Below are positions 3,414 to 30,168 of a stretch of 30,168 bases of DNA, piece by piece (within the stretch, counting starts at the first letter, position 1; every line of letters begins with the position of its first letter). A program made the translations under genes and the position numbers. This DNA is from a virus (taxonomy: Duplodnaviria; Heunggongvirae; Uroviricota; Caudoviricetes). The DNA lies in IMG/VR virus record IMGVR_UViG_2778261166_000009, positions 1-30,168 of that record; one strand, given 5' to 3'. A model generated the notes under the pieces. It searched no databases, had not been told where the DNA came from, and worked only from the letters and a program-made list of their open reading frames with translations.

Positions 3414-3814
3414 TGTCCATTATTTCGGTTGAAGGTAAATCACTAGGGGCAGAGCTGGCTGTGTGGGGCGTCCCGCATAACTACGCATTAGCGTTTGCAG
3501 AGAAAAGCACCAGTAAAAATGGGCGTATCGCTTTGCATCCGTTCTTCTTCAACGACACTGAACACATGACAAATCCGCGTCACTGGCTGGCGATCAATGC
3601 TGCTTTCTGGTGCTGCGTATATCGCGAAGCGAAAAGCAAAGAAGCCCAGATAGAAGCGCTGGCGGGGATTCGTGCAATTTTCTATACAGCCGGGGCGTTG
3701 GGCGTTGGCGAGATAAAAGCGCTGATCCAGGAGTGGTGGCGGATAACCTATGAGCTGCACCTGATTCCGGCACCGAACTACTCAGCCGCCACAGTACAAC
3801 CCACTTTTCACTAA
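3413..3814 (+). CDS. Hypothetical early protein (133 aa)
   Basis: Translationally coupled to the preceding ORF; no recognisable motif. Confidence 0.5.
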   Translation: MSIISVEGKSLGAELAVWGVPHNYALAFAEKSTSKNGRIALHPFFFNDTEHMTNPRHWLAINAAFWCCVYREAKSKEAQIEALAGIRAIFYTAGALGVGEIKALIQEWWRITYELHLIPAPNYSAATVQPTFH

Positions 3815-3881
3815 TTAACAGCCTGAATTTTTTGGCCACGGTTCAAGTGGCCGGGGATTCTTTTGCCTTAAGGAAACCAAA

Positions 3882-4115
3882 ATGCACATGACACGTCAGG
3901 ATTTACCCGCAACAAAATCAGGCACCGACCTGCTGGCCATGCTCACCAAAGCCACGCAGGAAGGTAAAGCCGCAGCAGCTGATCTGTGTTCCACCCGTCT
4001 GGATAAGCTGGCCACTCATGCGGCCAATGAAGGTTTAAGCGCAACGGAAATCGTTGAGTTAATCCGCGAAGAAGCCGCAGCGATTTGCAGCAAAGGCGGT
4101 GCGGCATGGAATTGA
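3882..4115 (+). CDS. Hypothetical small helical protein (77 aa)
   Basis: ATG ORF whose stop overlaps the exonuclease start; preceded by the inverted repeat GGCCAC-N7-GTGGCC. Confidence 0.4.
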   Translation: MHMTRQDLPATKSGTDLLAMLTKATQEGKAAAADLCSTRLDKLATHAANEGLSATEIVELIREEAAAICSKGGAAWN

Positions 4116-4810
4116 GCACTCGCAATCAACTTTTTTCGGCCATTTTGGGTGGGGTGGTTTCTGGTGCCAGAGCTAAAGAAGGGGCTTCGTTGCGCGATGT
4201 GATTCGCCAGTGTTGGAGGATCACCGATCAGTCTCTGTATTTTTCCGACCGTCTGGAAACCGAACAACAGATAGCAAAGCGCTGGATTGATAAGGGCTTT
4301 GTCATTCTTGATACAGAAACCACAGGACTAGGATTTGATGATGAAATTGTAGAAATTTCGATCATCGACTGTGCTGGTTACGTTTTGCTTAATACGCTGG
4401 TCAAGCCATCGAAATCTATTCCAGAAGCGGCAACTGCAATTCACGGTATTACGGATGAAATGGTTGCTAATGCACCATCATGGTTGGAAATTCTGCCGAA
4501 AGTATTGGAGTTAACAAGTAAAGGCTGGGTCGCATATAACGCAAAATTTGATGCGCGTATGTTGCGCCAGTCTGGTGGGGATTATGAACAGCATGAGGAT
4601 ATATGCACCCCTGAGTGCGTAATGCAGCTGTACGCAGATTATAACGGTGAATGGGATGTTGTACGCCGTAAAACCCGCTGGAAACGACTTGTGGATGCAG
4701 CGGCGGCGCTTAAGGTTGATGCCGGAGAAGGTGCACCACATAGAGCGTTGTATGACTGCAATCTGACGCTTGGTGTGATCCTTGCTATTGCAGAAGGCGG
4801 TGCAAAATGA
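4106..4810 (+). CDS. DnaQ-like 3'-5' exonuclease (DEDDh family)
   Basis: Exo I ILDTETTG, Exo [12 protein letters not shown], Exo III HRALYDC motifs; lower GC than neighbouring genes. Confidence 0.75.
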
Positions 4811-5136
4811 CAATCAAAATCCACACGATAAAGATTGCGCCGAAATACCTTGATGCAGTAGTGGCTGGCCAGAAAAAGGCCGAACTGCGAAAAAACGATC
4901 GCGGGTACAAAACCGGTAATGTTCTTTCACTTTGTGAGTGGAAGCACGGGAAATACACCGGGCGTGAGTGGGCGGCGGTTATCACCCATGTTTTTCCTGT
5001 AAATGAAATTATCGCTGATACCGAAAACTGGGCGGTTTTGTCCATCTGTTCACTGTCGCCGCTTGAAGTGCTGGAATACATCATTTCAAACGGTGTCACT
5101 GAGGCGTTAGCTGGCGGAGGTCAATATGGCCGTTAA
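4807..5136 (+). CDS. ASCH (PUA-like) domain protein
   Basis: Motif [25 protein letters not shown] matches the ASCH GxKxxExR core; ATGA overlap with the exonuclease stop. Confidence 0.6.
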
Positions 5137-5986
5137 AACTCCGCTTAAATGGGTGGGCAGCAAAGCCCGCCTTATGCCTAAGCTGCGTCCGCACCTTCCA
5201 GAAGGTAAACGCCTGGTTGAACCGTTCGCAGGTTCCTGCGCCGTCATGATGAATACGGATTATGACGAGTATCTGATCGCAGATGTGAATCCTGATCTGG
5301 TTAATCTTTATAAGGCGATGGCGTATCACACTGATGCGCTGCTGAATGAGCTGGAGATCCTGTTTACTGCCAGTTCGTTAGGTGATGAAGAAAGCCGTGC
5401 CGTTTTCTATTACGCCGTGCGTGATGCTTTCAATCTTTCTGGTGGTAAGGCTGGTTCTGAATCTGTTGAAAATGCTGCGCGTTTCCTGTACCTGAATCGC
5501 CACTGCTTCAATGGCCTGTGCCGGTATAACCGCCGAGGACAGTTCAACGTCCCGTTCGGTAAGTACAAAAAGCCTTATTTCCCCGCTGATGAAATCCGCG
5601 CCTTTGCTGAAAAAGCGAAACGCGCAACGTTCATTACTGCCCACTATTCAGAAACACTCGATTTGGTTCGGGACGGGAATGACGTTGTTTACTGTGATCC
5701 GCCTTATCTGACTGAAAGCGACAATTTCACCGCTTACCATGAGCGCGGTTTTACGCATATGGATCAGGGGAGGCTGGCGCGTAAGTTGCGCCGTCTGGCC
5801 AGAAAAGGTGTGCCGGTTGTGGCCTCTAACGCCGATCTGGAAATGGTTCATTACCTGTACGCCGGATTTGAAGCCGTTCGCGTTAATGCCCCGCGAAGTA
5901 TTGGTGCCGCAGCTACATGCCAAAAGACGGCCGCTGAGTTGATTCTGAAGTCTCCGCTTGATTCCATTGTGGTGGCTTGTGCATGA
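5126..5986 (+). CDS. dam: DNA adenine methyltransferase (Dam family)
   Basis: N-terminal LKWVGSK and EPFAGS (AdoMet binding) plus the catalytic DPPY motif (VVYCDPPYL). Confidence 0.85.
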
Positions 5987-8004
5987 CGCTGGCAATAAAC
6001 GAACAATGCTATGCCGTTGATGCCTGGAGGCGGGAAACATTCGCGCCAGGCACTCCGGCAGACGCGACAATCACAGAACGCCGCCTGTGGGCTGTAAACC
6101 CGCAGGATTATGAATGGCGATCCCGGTACCTGCATGAGATACCCGACTGGTTAGCCGGGTATTTTGGCCGTCGTTACGAAAAGCTTTTTTCTGGCCGTGA
6201 CGGGCGTCGCCGTGCCAATACATTCCTGCGCAAAACAATCGGTGAGAATGTATTGCCACGTCTGCGCAAAGTGGCTGCGCGTTACTCGCTGGCCGCTGAT
6301 GCTGCTGATCTTCCTTTTGGTAAGTCGCTGGAGCGCTTGCCGTCACTAGACCGTCCTGATCTTAAAAAACTGGCTGGCCAGATATCTGGCTGGATTTCCC
6401 AGTCACTTTATGACTTCACCGAACAGTTTGATTCCGGCGCTGACGACGCCAGAGAGCTGCATCGCCGCACCCTGGAATCATACCGCCATCTTTGTGCCTG
6501 TTGCCTGATGCTGAATAACCAGCCGCCGTACTGGGCTGAACATGAGGCCAATGAAGGTCAACTGGAAATGCGTAAGGCGGAATCCGGGATACTGCGCATG
6601 ATGGCGCCGGAATGGTGGTACCTGCGTTTTAAACGTGCTCGTGATACGCAGCGCGAGCACATGGCCATTACGGTGGGACAGGTGCAAAAAGCGGCCAGCG
6701 CTTATGTATCTCGCAAAACACTGGGCGAATGGATAGACCAGAAAAAGCGGAATCTGGAGTTCTTTAAAAAGTTTGATCTGCTGAATGATGAGGGGCTGCG
6801 CATTGCACTGGACAGCATGGTGCACCGCAGCGTTGCAAATCCGGCGATCCGTCGATGTGAACTAATGGTAAGAATGCGAGGGTTCGAAGATATGGCCAAT
6901 GAAGAAGGGCTGGCCGGTGAGTTTTACACTATCACCGCGCCATCACGTTTCCATGCGGTTCACAGCAAAGGGGGCTTTGTATCGCAATGGGATGGAAGTA
7001 CACCGCAGGATACCCAGCGCTATTTATGCGGCGTATGGGCAAAAGCACGCGCAGCGATCTCGCGTGCGGGTATTCATGTATTTGGGTTTCGGGTTGTTGA
7101 GCCTCACCATGACGGGACACCGCACTGGCATATGTTGCTTTTTATGCGTCCGCAGGACGTGGACACGGTGCGCGATATTCTTTGCTATCACGCCAGAATT
7201 ACCGATTCTGAAGAACTGCAATCTGAAAAGGCGCTGAAGGCACGTTTTCATGTTGAAGCTATCGATCCCGCCAAAGGTTCGGCCACGGGCTACATCGCGA
7301 AATACATTTCAAAAAATATTGATGGTTTTGCGCTTGATGGTGAGCAGGACGAAGAAACCGGCGAAAACCTGCGTGATATGGCTAAGTCCGTTTCCGCGTG
7401 GGCTTCACGCTGGCGTATTCGCCAGTTTCAGCAGATTGGTGGTGCGCCGGTAACCGTCTGGCGTGAGCTGCGTCGGTTGCGGGATCAGGTACTGACAGAT
7501 CGCAGAATGGATGCGGTTCTGGCCGCTGCTGATGTCGGGGACTGGGCTGCATATACCCAGGCGCAGGGAGGGGCACTGGTTGCCCGCCGTGATCTGGTTG
7601 TTCGTCTGGCCTATGAAATTACGGAACAGGGCAACGAATACGCGGAGGACGTGCAGCGCGTACAGGGTGTTTATTCTCCTTTGGTTCCTGATTCAGAAGT
7701 TTGCACCCGTCTGGTTAAGTGGCAAAAGGTTGCGAAGTTGGCCGAAGCGCCAGCGGAGGCGGGTTTTTCTGGCGGCAACGCCGCCCCTTGGAGTTCTGTC
7801 AATAACTGTACGGAAGGGGGAACCCGCAGACGGTTAAAACTGGAATTATGCAGTCGGGGTTTTGATGGTTCTGATGAAGAAATAGCGATTCTCCTGCGGG
7901 GTAGTGGTTTGAGATTTGGTCAGGGCGCTCTGATTTACCGCAACGGACGGCTTAAAGAGACTCAAAACGAGCCATTACAGGAGCTGTGGCCGGGGTGGTT
8001 ATAG
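5983..8004 (+). CDS. A: Rolling-circle replication initiator endonuclease (P2 gpA-like)
   Basis: HUH-type motif HWHMLLF and tyrosine pair GYIAKYISK; ATGA overlap with the dam stop; position matches P2/186 gene A. Confidence 0.8.
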   Translation: MTLAINEQCYAVDAWRRETFAPGTPADATITERRLWAVNPQDYEWRSRYLHEIPDWLAGYFGRRYEKLFSGRDGRRRANTFLRKTIGENVLPRLRKVAARYSLAADAADLPFGKSLERLPSLDRPDLKKLAGQISGWISQSLYDFTEQFDSGADDARELHRRTLESYRHLCACCLMLNNQPPYWAEHEANEGQLEMRKAESGILRMMAPEWWYLRFKRARDTQREHMAITVGQVQKAASAYVSRKTLGEWIDQKKRNLEFFKKFDLLNDEGLRIALDSMVHRSVANPAIRRCELMVRMRGFEDMANEEGLAGEFYTITAPSRFHAVHSKGGFVSQWDGSTPQDTQRYLCGVWAKARAAISRAGIHVFGFRVVEPHHDGTPHWHMLLFMRPQDVDTVRDILCYHARITDSEELQSEKALKARFHVEAIDPAKGSATGYIAKYISKNIDGFALDGEQDEETGENLRDMAKSVSAWASRWRIRQFQQIGGAPVTVWRELRRLRDQVLTDRRMDAVLAAADVGDWAAYTQAQGGALVARRDLVVRLAYEITEQGNEYAEDVQRVQGVYSPLVPDSEVCTRLVKWQKVAKLAEAPAEAGFSGGNAAPWSSVNNCTEGGTRRRLKLELCSRGFDGSDEEIAILLRGSGLRFGQGALIYRNGRLKETQNEPLQELWPGWL

Positions 8005-28397: not shown

Positions 28398-28730
28398 ATG
28401 AAAAATTTCATTATATTAGCTGTAGGAGCAGCAGTTTCATTCAATGTGTTTGCGGCTGAGGTTGTTTATGTGCCAACAGATACGAAGGCTAGTTACACGA
28501 TTTTAGATAAGACTCGCGACGGCAGCATGGCTACTATAACAACCGAAAGAAAGGGGCCGTCTGGAACATCATATTCAAAGCGGCTGTACGACTGTACTGC
28601 CGGGACAGTTAAATATCTTGGAGACGGTGAGACCATCGAGCAGATGAATAACTCGGCACCAGATCCAAATATGGCCCCTATAGTTGACCGCTCAATTGCA
28701 TACTACATTGGACAAAAAGCCTGTCAGTAA
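28398..28730 (+). CDS. Small secreted/periplasmic protein (cargo gene), two Cys
   Basis: Signal peptide MKNFIILAVGAAVSFNVFAAE; lower GC than the tail genes; own terminator downstream. Confidence 0.55.
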   Translation: MKNFIILAVGAAVSFNVFAAEVVYVPTDTKASYTILDKTRDGSMATITTERKGPSGTSYSKRLYDCTAGTVKYLGDGETIEQMNNSAPDPNMAPIVDRSIAYYIGQKACQ

Positions 28731-28771
28731 CTACGTTCTTATATCGGTTGATATGAATTGAACACACCTTA

Positions 28772-28795
28772 ACCCGCATTGTGCGGGTTTTTTTG
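28772..28795 (+). terminator. Rho-independent terminator
   Basis: ACCCGCA-TTG-TGCGGGT hairpin followed by a run of seven T. Confidence 0.65.
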
Positions 28796-29243
28796 TACCC
28801 ACCACCAGACCGCACAGAACGCTCTCAGCAGGCGGGACAACACTAGGGTAACCACTGCGACACCGCAATAAGATCAAATTCACAGCGACGCTCTGAGGTA
28901 GCCACATGCAGACAAAATAAATCTTTCGCAGACAAAAACGGCACTACACCGCACCCGCCTGCGGTTTCTGGATCGATAAATTTTTTCAGTTTTATTTTTC
29001 TACAAACCAGACTGTCATCTCGCGCCAGCACTGGTGGCTTTGCGGAAAACCCAAACTGAAAAGATTGAAAAGAATTTCAGTGTTTATCAGTTTTTCGTGG
29101 GGATAAGGTTGTTGTGAGTATTCTATCTTTATGATTTATATATATTATTTTTATTTTCTTTGATGTTATATCGAAGTCGTGTTTCAGCCTGATTTATTGA
29201 ACTGATTGATTTTATGGCAATTTACCATATAGATGGCTTGGAT

Positions 29244-29257
29244 TTTATTGCAATAAA
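29244..29257. promoter_or_regulatory. 14-bp perfect palindrome upstream of the DprA-like gene (candidate operator)
   Basis: TTTATTGCAATAAA, about 50 bp upstream of the ATG at 29308, in an extremely AT-rich intergenic tract. Confidence 0.3.
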
Positions 29258-29307
29258 TCATAAAATAGATCATTCAAAAATCAATCATTCTTTATGCTAG
29301 GTATCTT

Positions 29308-30168
29308 ATGGATAGCAAGTTGAATCTTGATGAGGCAGGTAGAATCGCTTGGCAGCATGCAGCACTTGTTTTGAGCAAGAAAATTGGTATCGGTTCTAAA
29401 AAATTTAATGAAGACCTGAAGGTTTTAATTAATCAATTTGGGAATATTGAAAACATTTATCAATATCACTTTGGCATGGTTCCAATCGATCCTGATTTGA
29501 TTCGCGTACTCGATAAAAAATTTTCCAACCTAAATTTTAAGTTTGAAGTATTACAATTTAATGATGAACTATATCCCAACGCATTGAGACAAATTTATGG
29601 GATTCCCCCAATCTATTATTATAGAGGCGATGTCAGTTTGTTGGGGATTGAGGATAGTATCTCTTTTGTTGGGACGCGAAATCTTGATGAAAAAGCGTAT
29701 ATTGAACATGGTGTTGATGTTATAAAAAGATTATTTTCTGCGGGCTATAAGGTCATCGTAAGTGGATTGGCTAAAGGTTCGGATACCCTCGGACATAAAA
29801 CAGCAATAGAATTAGGGGGGCGAACCATTGCTGTATTAGGAACACCTCTTGATGTATCTTATCCAGCGGAAAATAAAGTGTTGCAAAATCAAATAGCAAC
29901 TGAGCATTTAGTAATTACTGAATATCCTATCGGGATTGGTAGTTTTGGAACATACTTCGCAAATAGAAACCTCACTACCGTAAGTTTATCGCACAAAGGA
30001 ATAGTAGTTGCACGTGCTGGTGATAAAAGCGGTACTCAATATGCGATCAAAACTTGTATTGAGCAAGGTAAGCCGGTTTACGTTTTGGAAAATAATATCT
30101 ATGAGCCTGATTTTAAATGGGTAGAAAAATATAAAGATAAAATAAAAGTAATTAGAATGACAAAATAA
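29308..30168 (+). CDS. dprA: Short-form DprA/Smf DNA-processing protein (SAM-like N-domain plus Rossmann-fold domain)
   Basis: Rossmann core VSGLAKGSDTLGHKTAIELGGRTIAVLGTPLDVSYPAENK matches the DprA signature SGxAxGxD...GGxTIAVLG...D..YP.EN; N-terminal GIGSKKF...FGNIENIY resembles the DprA SAM-like domain; stop codon is the last three bases of the window. Confidence 0.8.
   Translation: MDSKLNLDEAGRIAWQHAALVLSKKIGIGSKKFNEDLKVLINQFGNIENIYQYHFGMVPIDPDLIRVLDKKFSNLNFKFEVLQFNDELYPNALRQIYGIPPIYYYRGDVSLLGIEDSISFVGTRNLDEKAYIEHGVDVIKRLFSAGYKVIVSGLAKGSDTLGHKTAIELGGRTIAVLGTPLDVSYPAENKVLQNQIATEHLVITEYPIGIGSFGTYFANRNLTTVSLSHKGIVVARAGDKSGTQYAIKTCIEQGKPVYVLENNIYEPDFKWVEKYKDKIKVIRMTK

Follow-up and report, generated by a model that had tools for sequence, protein, structure and literature searches.

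In phage P2, gene A lies in an overlapping chain with the gene for Orf91, a 109-aa DUF3850 protein, and a putative terminator is annotated between gene B and the gene for Orf80, a DUF2732 protein; no methylase is present (PMC3091744). Elsewhere ASCH domains are reported as fusion partners or operon neighbours of N6-adenine methylases, and the idea that such partners act as writer and reader of the modification was proposed in general form by Iyer, Zhang and Aravind in 2016 (PMC4738411), while recognition of 6mA by any ASCH domain was still unconfirmed as of 2024 (PMC11037411). Among the characterised ASCH proteins, YqfB is an ac4C amidohydrolase, and TthASCH and other GKER-type proteins are erasers of ac4C in tRNA, with a K23/E26 catalytic dyad in TthASCH (preprint 10.64898/2026.02.27.708502). 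The DUF3850 family is represented by a solved structure (3IUW), and a search of the literature found no tested function for any of its members. For Dam-type methylases, the roles of the GATC-contacting residues have been described in the E. coli enzyme, EcoDam (PMC4417163).

The window, by which we mean the whole stretch of 30,168 nucleotides that was analysed, is an Escherichia coli prophage of the Peduoviridae, a 186/HP1-like member of the P2 family integrated beside mntS. Sequenced E. coli strains match it at 100% identity, with identical prophages in EC101, 20KM0223N and MEI148-20EC, and the RefSeq annotation in these strains is already the same. In addition, the region is 92-95% identical in the Escherichia phages ESSI2_ev129, ev040 and ev015 (Peduoviridae, Quadragintavirus). 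Across these phages and prophages the order DUF2732, exonuclease, DUF3850, Dam, gpA is kept at 92-100% nucleotide identity, under the labels 3'-5' exonuclease, DUF3850 protein, DNA adenine methylase and replication endonuclease; ESSI2_ev040 and ev015 carry another exonuclease allele (198 aa, 52% identical to that of the window), and ESSI2_ev129 has an additional Dcm gene between Dam and gpA. In the early (replication) operon, positions 3882-8004 form the distal portion; for an E. coli prophage of the P2/186-like kind this operon is ordinary, and it was annotated before (Table 1). An Rfam scan of the whole window found no RNA family at threshold, and the only matches to PADLOC defence models were generic ones for DEDDh and methyltransferase, together with a chance-level hit of 23 residues in the ASCH protein.

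Table 1. Genes, junctions and motifs of the segment between the DUF2732 gene and the replication initiator gene, in window coordinates
Feature	Position	Strand	Basis or remark
Terminator-like hairpin	3829..3857	+	Consensus scan; upstream of the overlapping chain
DUF2732 gene, homologue of P2 Orf80	3882..4115	+	Pfam DUF2732 2.8e-12
DUF2732/exonuclease overlap, 10 nt	4106..4115	+	Sequence reading
DEDDh (DnaQ/ExoX-like) 3'-5' exonuclease, 234 aa	4106..4810	+	Pfam RNase_T 3.3e-20
Exonuclease motif DTETTG	4310-4327
Exonuclease motif YNAKFD	4535-4552
Exonuclease motif HRALYD	4739-4756
Exonuclease/ASCH overlap, ATGA	4807..4810	+	Sequence reading
DUF3850/ASCH (PUA-like) protein, 109 aa	4807..5136	+	Pfam DUF3850 3.8e-21, ASCH 1e-4
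ASCH octapeptide GxKxxExR	4867-4890
Shine-Dalgarno sequence GGAGG	5116-5120		Ahead of the ASCH/Dam overlap
ASCH/Dam overlap, 11 nt, ATGGCCGTTAA	5126..5136	+	Sequence reading
Orphan Dam-type N6-adenine methyltransferase, 286 aa	5126..5986	+	Pfam D12 9.6e-67
Dam motif NGLCRYN	5510-5530
Dam motif DPPY	5696-5707
Dam/gpA overlap, ATGA	5983..5986	+	Sequence reading; ESSI2_ev040 annotated identically
gpA HUH rolling-circle replication initiator, 673 aa	5983..8004	+	Pfam Phage_GPA 4.4e-104
gpA motif HHDGTPHWH (holding the HUH motif PHWH)	7105-7131
gpA motif YIAKYISK	7291-7314

The original prediction had described a chain of four genes, for an exonuclease, an ASCH protein, a Dam methylase and a gpA-like initiator, joined by ATGA/TGATG junctions and translationally coupled. 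Pfam profiles and motifs confirm all four identities, the span given for the three accessory genes (4106-5986) has the exonuclease start and the Dam stop as its exact ends, and the translational coupling is supported. The four genes do overlap, and two of their junctions are ATGA; the ASCH/Dam junction is instead an 11-nt overlap, none of the junctions is TGATG, and the chain has five members rather than four, with the DUF2732 gene joining by a 10-nt overlap. A consensus scan of the plus strand over 3882-8004 found no promoter- or terminator-like site inside the chain, which together with the head-to-tail overlap of five genes points to the layout of a single transcript along which ribosomes move on from each gene to the next. 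The hairpin upstream of the chain stands at the place equivalent to that of the annotated P2 terminator. When junctions were compared across loci, the 3' end of the DUF2732 gene, which contains AAAGGCGGTGCGGCATGG, was found to be a shared docking junction for whichever gene comes next. A 10-nt repeat, AAGGCGGTGC, before the starts of the exonuclease and ASCH genes was not significant alone (five matches with at most one mismatch against 2.6 expected, a count reached in 11 of 100 shuffles) and is better explained as a conserved junction that includes the Shine-Dalgarno sequence. A programmed frameshift fusing ASCH to Dam was also rejected, since the frame of the overlap varies among relatives (4, 7, 11 or 1 nt).

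The explanation that we prefer, and to which as a whole we assign a probability of about one half, is that of a replication operon with a gpA-coupled Dam methylase, an optional and autonomous ASCH protein and a swappable exonuclease. The gpA protein matches its profile at 348.4 bits (PF05840), with the HUH motif and the paired tyrosines Y437-x3-Y441 present, and would nick the origin and thereby start rolling-circle replication. The EcoDam-like GATC methylase, made together with gpA in time, may ensure that new phage DNA, made in a burst, is fully methylated at times when host Dam runs short, in which case MutH nicking and SeqA binding would be avoided and the packaged DNA would be pre-methylated.

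The methylase scores 225.8 bits against PF02086, carries DPPY at residues 191-194 and is 44% identical to EcoDam (PDB 2G1P, 4RTJ; 1.2e-60). The GATC-contacting EcoDam residues K9, N120, L122, R124, P134 and Y138 are identical in the phage enzyme, whereas Y119 is replaced by Phe and R137 by Lys. Moreover, the AdoMet motif reads FAGSC as against FVGAG in EcoDam, the last Gly being Cys, and the FAGSC form also occurs in diverged relatives (e.g., locus L032). GATC specificity is to be expected from the retained contact residues and DPPY, and the enzyme is probably GATC-specific. Unlike EcoDam, it is phage-encoded and coupled to gpA. It is also an orphan, with ASCH and gpA as neighbours and no adjacent restriction endonuclease, and its best PADLOC model is that of an orphan methyltransferase (9.7e-93). 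Anti-restriction as the main job of the methylase, whereby progeny would be pre-methylated against GATC-cleaving systems in the next host, is consistent with this orphan state, with the general role proposed for phage methylases (PMC3091744) and with the further Dcm or PAPS-reductase-like DNA-modification genes found in the neighbouring slot of relatives. We nevertheless regard this role as doubtful, because the predicted specificity is the same as that of host Dam, so that growth in E. coli already gives the DNA most of this protection, because GATC is at or above expectation in the prophage rather than depleted (118 sites against 94 +/- 10 in shuffles), and because the position of Dam and its coupling to gpA point to a replication-linked role. 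Protection against restriction, to which the original prediction had appealed, is therefore left with a weak rationale, and under the replication-operon explanation it would bring no more than a secondary advantage in hosts that have Dam.

The relation between ASCH and Dam was followed in a comparison of about 220 related loci, based on IMG/VR viral contigs many of which are closely related (a scan of genome contigs gave three loci), so that all counts given here are non-independent. In this lineage ASCH is an optional add-on that always stands immediately before Dam and overlaps it. An overlapping Dam gene directly follows ASCH in 80 of the 83 ASCH-anchored loci, and the other three, which might have passed for ASCH without Dam, are a contig end (L016) and two internal deletions joining ASCH to prophage baseplate genes (L074 and L079); a further candidate of this kind, L004, is a remnant that breaks off within DUF3850. 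Each of the 74 unique pairs overlaps, 49 of them by ATGA and 23 by the 11-nt junction class of the window, and no gene was ever inserted between ASCH and Dam in the surveyed loci, despite cassettes inserted on either side. This invariant adjacency is what a functional pair would show, and it counts against our main explanation.

Seen from Dam, the association is different: ASCH is missing from 58 of the 79 related loci with Dam, it precedes only about 25% of the related Dam genes, and its presence changes by gain or loss at least 18 times on the Dam tree. Excess co-divergence of ASCH with Dam was not found (rho 0.71, against 0.69 with gpA and 0.69 with CII). A conserved operonic linkage between ASCH and an N6-adenine methyltransferase was thus observed, and mutual dependence or co-evolution was not. 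As in the association described by Iyer et al. (PMC4738411), a stand-alone ASCH gene shares an operon with a Dam-type methylase; the linkage here is however one-sided, in that ASCH implies Dam and not the reverse, it shows no co-divergence, and the same DUF3850 family is also found without methylases.

The ASCH protein matches both DUF3850 (PF12961, 75.5 bits against a cut-off of 22.9) and ASCH (PF04266, 23.3 bits against 21.2), and has a PUA-like beta-barrel fold. Its octapeptide (G21-Q-K23-K-A-E26-L-R28) contains three nearly invariant residues, K23, E26 and R28, conserved in at least 90% of 49 diverse DUF3850 members, and TthASCH uses the equivalent K23/E26 dyad for catalysis (preprint 10.64898/2026.02.27.708502); the octapeptide is a catalytic element in the ASCH hydrolases characterised so far. 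Position 38 is Asn in the window and Asp in at least 90% of relatives. Overall, the conserved DUF3850 residues are charged (K, E, R, D, H) and resemble a catalytic ASCH site, not an aromatic cage. In the comparison with YqfB, TthASCH, the other GKER-type erasers and 3IUW, similarity to YqfB was marginal (E 0.05), with Glu at the position of YqfB Thr24, and DUF3850 differs from the characterised ASCH proteins in additional conserved residues of its own, N-D-R and E44.

The DUF3850 family comprises 13,794 clusters at 50% identity, mostly stand-alone. Ten long relatives showed no other recognisable domain, hence no methyltransferase or nuclease fusion, and the phiEf11 protein consists of DUF1642 and DUF3850. 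An Enterococcus phage protein annotated as an exonuclease proved, by Pfam, to have an N-terminal region without a family match followed by DUF3850, and no nuclease domain. The family also occurs without an adjacent methylase in the unrelated contexts of T7-like (Kayfunavirus), T1-like (Tunavirus) and Gram-positive phages, and in Listeria and Enterococcus phages without gpA. Orf91 of P2 is 45% identical to the window protein over residues 1-71, but lies downstream of A, whereas the window gene lies upstream, and Dam is found in none of 59 P2-type loci. The state of P2, with no phage Dam, is compatible with a 6mA-reading role, since the E. coli host supplies GATC methylation.

These observations bear on the suggestion of the original prediction that ASCH and Dam form a unit of writer and reader. 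On this proposal Dam writes 6mA at GATC and ASCH flips out and reads the base, as YTH, EVE and SRA domains do, which would tie ASCH to Dam, for example in targeting, regulating or shielding methylated phage DNA. In its favour is the overlapping Dam that always follows ASCH in this lineage. On the other side, some 75% of related Dam genes manage without ASCH, the turnover on the Dam tree is high and the co-divergence nothing special, P2-type phages have DUF3850 but no phage methylase (PMC3091744), and Kayfunavirus, Tunavirus and Gram-positive phages have it with no methylase adjacent, the conserved residues are those of a catalytic site, and no ASCH domain had gained experimental support as a reader by 2024 (PMC11037411). 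Support for the writer-plus-reader idea is therefore mixed, and it is neither excluded nor favoured here; as an account of this locus we rate it unlikely. It is distinctly unlikely that ASCH is a true partner of Dam, whether as a G(6mA)TC reader or as a Dam modulator, that possibly also guides the DEDDh exonuclease. Under the replication-operon explanation, the ASCH protein would most likely act alone through the K23/E26/R28 pocket, as a small GKER-type ASCH hydrolase or binder of nucleic acids or nucleosides, with dedicated reading of the 6mA mark of Dam as a less likely role, and its place beside Dam would reflect descent and the slot structure of the operon.

ASCH could also serve replication through gpA, as a small protein that binds single-stranded nucleic acid and that translational coupling keeps in dose with gpA, on either side of A. 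DUF3850 indeed occurs in the overlapping chain of gpA both ways, as ASCH-Dam-gpA here and as A-Orf91 in P2 and in 59 of 59 P2-type loci. However, this association is uninformative because all P2-like phages have gpA, DUF3850 is common in gpA-less phages (T7-like, T1-like, Listeria and Enterococcus), and most related phages replicate without ASCH, which makes such a role improbable.

Two variable slots between DUF2732 and gpA flank the more stable Dam gene, and both hold alternative cassettes in relatives. Several interchangeable cassettes share the upstream slot, among them the exonuclease. Closely related backbones carry Dam only, ASCH and Dam, exonuclease, ASCH and Dam, or these three with Dcm, and near-identical backbones have in the slot no cassette, either of two 52%-identical exonuclease alleles, or an unrelated 189-aa gene. 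Strain CM2010-0578/1 represents the Dam-only state, and EC101 that with exonuclease, ASCH and Dam. Across loci the exonuclease is present or absent independently, with four diverged alleles. Its modular acquisition, which had been proposed from a lower GC content than that of its neighbours, is well supported by this presence/absence and cassette exchange, far more strongly than by base composition. The dip is real (GC 0.471 and GC3 0.413, against 0.51-0.54 for DUF2732, Dam and gpA) but modest, ASCH being equally low (0.479); at the 18th percentile of all 705-nt stretches in the 30 kb, about 0.8 sd below the mean, it is weak evidence of acquisition, and presence/absence was used instead.

The exonuclease scores 73.7 bits against RNase_T (PF00929; cut-off 24) and has the Exo I, II and III residues (D69-T-E71, D149 in YNAKFD, and H212-x4-D217) in alignment with ExoX and PolC. 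Among solved structures it is closest to the exonuclease domain of PolC and to ExoX of E. coli (E ~1e-13); the DEDDh fold and motifs are common to exonuclease X and the DnaQ epsilon/PolC proofreading domains, and HRALYDC is identical to that of ExoX. It differs from these relatives in that no gene for a partner polymerase is present and in about 60 extra N-terminal residues, which the 198-aa allele lacks. ExoX is a mismatch-repair exonuclease. Judging by these similarities, the window protein may be an independent ExoX/epsilon-like 3'-5' DNase serving replication or recombination. It may not be fully independent, since ASCH is present in 7 of 9 exonuclease loci against 13 of 70 exonuclease-less loci (Fisher p = 7e-4, not corrected for phylogeny). 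This enrichment, the three diverged exonuclease alleles (50-78% identical) each found upstream of ASCH, the place of ExoX among the closest solved relatives, and the known design of fusions between PUA-superfamily sensors and nucleases (PMC7897488) would fit a modification-guided nuclease made of exonuclease, ASCH and Dam, with a PUA-like sensor and a nuclease as in type IV restriction enzymes, that processes or degrades DNA by methylation state, but we consider such a module very improbable, given that about 70 of 83 ASCH-Dam loci are without the exonuclease, that two loci (L141 and L151) have exonuclease and Dam without ASCH, that the same slot is occupied by unrelated cassettes, that the enrichment is uncorrected for shared ancestry, and that a fusion of DUF3850 to a nuclease domain was not found among the relatives tested.

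As it stands, the segment is accessory DNA of a routine kind in a well-known phage family, and public genomes already carry its annotation. The loci compared show how cassettes are exchanged in a phage operon at overlapping start/stop junctions that serve as fixed docking points. Besides, near-isogenic natural variants exist with Dam alone, with ASCH and Dam, with exonuclease, ASCH and Dam, and with the same set plus Dcm, and the host offers dam, mutH and seqA mutants as well as methylase-free strains, so that the reader and hydrolase hypotheses are separable by simple experiments. If ASCH were truly a partner of Dam, the prediction, now a decade old, that adenine methylation is sensed by ASCH domains would find its first tractable test system in this family of E. 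coli prophages.

The window is an Escherichia coli prophage belonging to the P2 family. Over segment 3800-6100 it matches the chromosomes of E. coli EC101, 20KM0223N, and MEI148-20EC at 100% identity and the Escherichia phages ESSI2_ev129, ev040, and ev015 (Peduoviridae, Quadragintavirus) at 92-95%, and mntS adjoins the prophage. The genes run in the order integrase, CI repressor, Cox-like, CII (CP76 family), Fil, two uncharacterised genes, DUF2732, exonuclease, DUF3850 (the ASCH protein), Dam, gpA, and Ogr, followed by portal and terminase. Pfam matches and motifs bore out the identities originally predicted for exonuclease, ASCH, Dam, and gpA, labelled in RefSeq as '3'-5' exonuclease', 'DUF3850 domain-containing protein', 'DNA adenine methylase', and 'replication endonuclease', and this four-gene segment contains no gene of a kind new to phages. 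Among solved structures, the exonuclease is nearest to E. coli ExoX and the exonuclease domain of PolC (~1e-13). Outside the right end of the prophage, a low-GC island (minimum 0.316) contains a 130-aa ORF and a DprA/Smf-like gene that runs past the window end.

Coordinates of features in the window and in related phage and prophage loci
Feature	Sequence	Position	Strand	Evidence or content
Terminator-like hairpin	window	3829-3857	+	consensus scan
Exonuclease	window	4106-4810	+	Pfam RNase_T 3.3e-20; DEDDh motifs DTETTG, YNAKFD, HRALYD
Exonuclease residues 1-60	window	4106-4285	+	N-terminal extension
ASCH	window	4807-5136	+	109-aa DUF3850/ASCH protein
ASCH residue 38	window	4918-4920	+	Asn
Dam	window	5126-5986	+	D12-class adenine methylase 9.6e-67; 44% identity to EcoDam
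gpA	window	5983-8004	+	match 4.4e-104; HUH motif and paired tyrosines
Low-GC island	window	28278-30168		130-aa ORF and DprA/Smf-like gene
DprA/Smf-like gene	window	29308-30168		PF02481 1.8e-44
Orf91	P2 (L168)	3501-3830		DUF3850
189-aa gene in exonuclease slot	L010	4436-5005		no reliable Pfam match
Truncated DUF3850	L004 (E. coli PSS-07)	5008-5106
Split Dam	L077	6216-7145		two ORFs
Dam-gpA slot	ev129			Dcm gene
Dam-gpA slot	L001	4696-5706		C5-cytosine methylase
Dam-gpA slot	L032	7139-8149		PAPS-reductase-like PP-loop protein, PF01507 6e-35
Dam-gpA slot	L037			PAPS-reductase-like PP-loop protein

The coupling of the four genes by ATGA or TGATG junctions, as first described, was recovered in part: exonuclease/ASCH and Dam/gpA meet at ATGA, ASCH and Dam share instead an 11-nt overlap (ATGGCCGTTAA) with a GGAGG Shine-Dalgarno sequence upstream, and no TGATG was read at any junction of the chain. 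Because DUF2732 also overlaps the exonuclease, by 10 nt, the overlapping chain comprises five genes. Between 3882 and 8004, the + strand carried no site resembling a promoter or terminator in a consensus scan. The terminator-like hairpin lies between the 133-aa gene and DUF2732, matching the position of the annotated putative terminator before Orf80 in P2, and may lower expression of the entire DUF2732-to-gpA chain.

Related loci were collected in three sets, anchored on ASCH (83 loci), Dam (80), and P2 Orf91 (59), and their neighbouring genes were classified by phmmer with the window's own proteins as queries. The presence of ASCH implies Dam, and not vice versa. In the ASCH-anchored set, Dam directly followed ASCH at 80 of 83 loci; of the three exceptions, L016 reaches a contig end, and L074 and L079 carry internal deletions that fuse the ASCH stop to HP1-ORF34-type baseplate genes homologous to window 25326-28307. 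ASCH and Dam overlapped in all 74 unique sequences of the pair (4 nt, n = 49; 11 nt, n = 23; 7 nt, n = 1; 1 nt, n = 1). ASCH was absent from 58 of the 79 closest Dam loci, and most of those 58 have the layout DUF2732-Dam-gpA, with Dam docked straight onto the DUF2732 stop. Mapped onto a neighbour-joining tree built from 123 unique Dam sequences, ASCH presence requires at least 18 changes and exonuclease presence at least nine. Moreover, distance matrices over 65 unique loci revealed no special co-divergence of ASCH with Dam (rho 0.71; 0.69 with gpA, 0.69 with CII, and 0.67 with DUF2732), while Dam itself gave 0.88 with DUF2732 and 0.83 with gpA. The evidence leans towards a reading of ASCH as an optional and autonomous accessory, placed beside Dam by ancestry and by the operon's slot structure.

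Deletions in three prophage remnants (L004, L074, and L079) begin within or just past the ASCH gene; the L004 remnant, in E. coli PSS-07, is flanked by the same low-GC dprA island as the window, to which its truncated DUF3850 gene is joined. At L077 the Dam gene is broken into two ORFs and is apparently a pseudogene; the upstream ASCH is intact.

Searching 1.84 billion cluster representatives with a DUF3850 profile returned 13,794 clusters at E <= 1e-3, mostly stand-alone proteins of 75-140 residues, with no second recognisable domain in 10 longer members, and 481 records of the annotated phage collection held a homologue. Orf91 of P2 is likewise a 109-aa DUF3850 protein, with 45% identity to the ASCH of the window, but it overlaps the 3' end of gene A, whereas the window's ASCH precedes Dam. 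The order gene A then Orf91 was kept in all 59 P2-type loci (L174-L232), none of which had Dam within 5 kb; P2 lacks a methylase and Orf91 has no assigned function (PMC3091744). The DUF3850 gene is placed between tail genes in Kayfunavirus, among uncharacterised early genes in one Tunavirus, and in yet other contexts in Enterococcus, Klebsiella, and Listeria phages, and no methylase adjoined it in the six loci inspected. Since DUF3850 occurs in P2-type and other phages without a neighbouring methylase, a phage-encoded methylase is not generally needed by the family, although in enterobacterial hosts the host Dam could supply the methyl mark.

The original prediction that Dam writes 6mA and ASCH reads it is an idea already published, hence not new here; it was put forward on the basis of gene neighbourhoods and fusions (PMC4738411) and called unconfirmed in 2024 (PMC11037411). 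Our data neither establish nor exclude such a pairing, which we consider unlikely. Near-invariant residues among 49 diverse members (H6, K9, K23, E26, R28, D31, R32, D38, E44, G52, and S79) include the ASCH octapeptide GxKxxExR (K23, E26, R28), and a profile alignment with YqfB places K23 on the essential Lys21, E26 on Thr24, and R28 on Arg26 (PMC6972931). According to a 2026 preprint (10.64898/2026.02.27.708502), ASCH proteins of the GKER type remove the acetyl group of ac4C, both in tRNA and from the free nucleoside, and TthASCH has Lys23/Glu26 as its catalytic dyad, so that a hydrolase reading has an experimental precedent, whereas the 6mA-reader reading is without one. Residue 38 of the window's ASCH is Asn; Asp occupies this position in at least 90% of the 49 diverse DUF3850 proteins and in most close relatives, including the 97%-identical P0001.

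The exonuclease is a cassette that about 12 of the 83 ASCH loci carry; its modular acquisition was rightly anticipated, given its presence/absence, its diverged clusters, and the unrelated genes in the same slot. The low GC first cited for it is a real dip (GC 0.471 and GC3 0.413 vs 0.51-0.54 in neighbours) that is unremarkable, at the 18th percentile among equal-sized windows. Its sequences form four clusters with mutual identity of 50-83%; the window's form (234 aa) and that of ev040 (198 aa) share 52% identity. The 234-aa allele has roughly 60 additional residues at its N-terminus, outside the RNase_T domain, which the 198-aa allele lacks. Two loci (L141 and L151) carry the exonuclease immediately before Dam, without ASCH; elsewhere its slot holds a TraR/DksA zinc finger (L032) or an unrelated 189-aa gene (L010 and L022) that opens with the exonuclease's M-E-L codons and closes with its GGAK codons and the ATGA junction. 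All genes placed after DUF2732 share one start ATG, which lies within AAAGGCGGTGCGGCATGG. Dam and gpA flank a second variable slot, where relatives carry further genes of the DNA-modification type, either Dcm or PAPS-reductase-like. The exonuclease co-occurs with ASCH above the rate in exonuclease-free loci (7/9 vs 13/70; p = 7e-4, uncorrected for shared ancestry), a residual signal that deserves note.

The phage Dam keeps K9, N120, L122, R124, P134, and Y138 of EcoDam together with DPPY, and replaces Y119 by Phe and R137 by Lys (residue roles in PMC4417163). Judging from the conservation of the GATC-related residues and DPPY, it is likely specific for GATC. Its AdoMet motif reads FAGSC, unlike FVGAG in EcoDam, and this form is retained in diverged relatives. 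The 30,168 bases contain 118 GATC sites, where dinucleotide-preserving shuffles give 94 +/- 10 (1/100 reaches 118); being slightly in excess, the site is not avoided. The E. coli host methylates GATC itself, and with no avoidance of the site, restriction protection cannot be the whole story for Dam. Given its tight coupling to gpA, the phage Dam may have a role linked to replication, in which it would keep fast-made rolling-circle products methylated while host Dam is limiting.

Overall, the main value of the finding is that the prophage variants form a convenient natural experimental series for probing ASCH/DUF3850 function.
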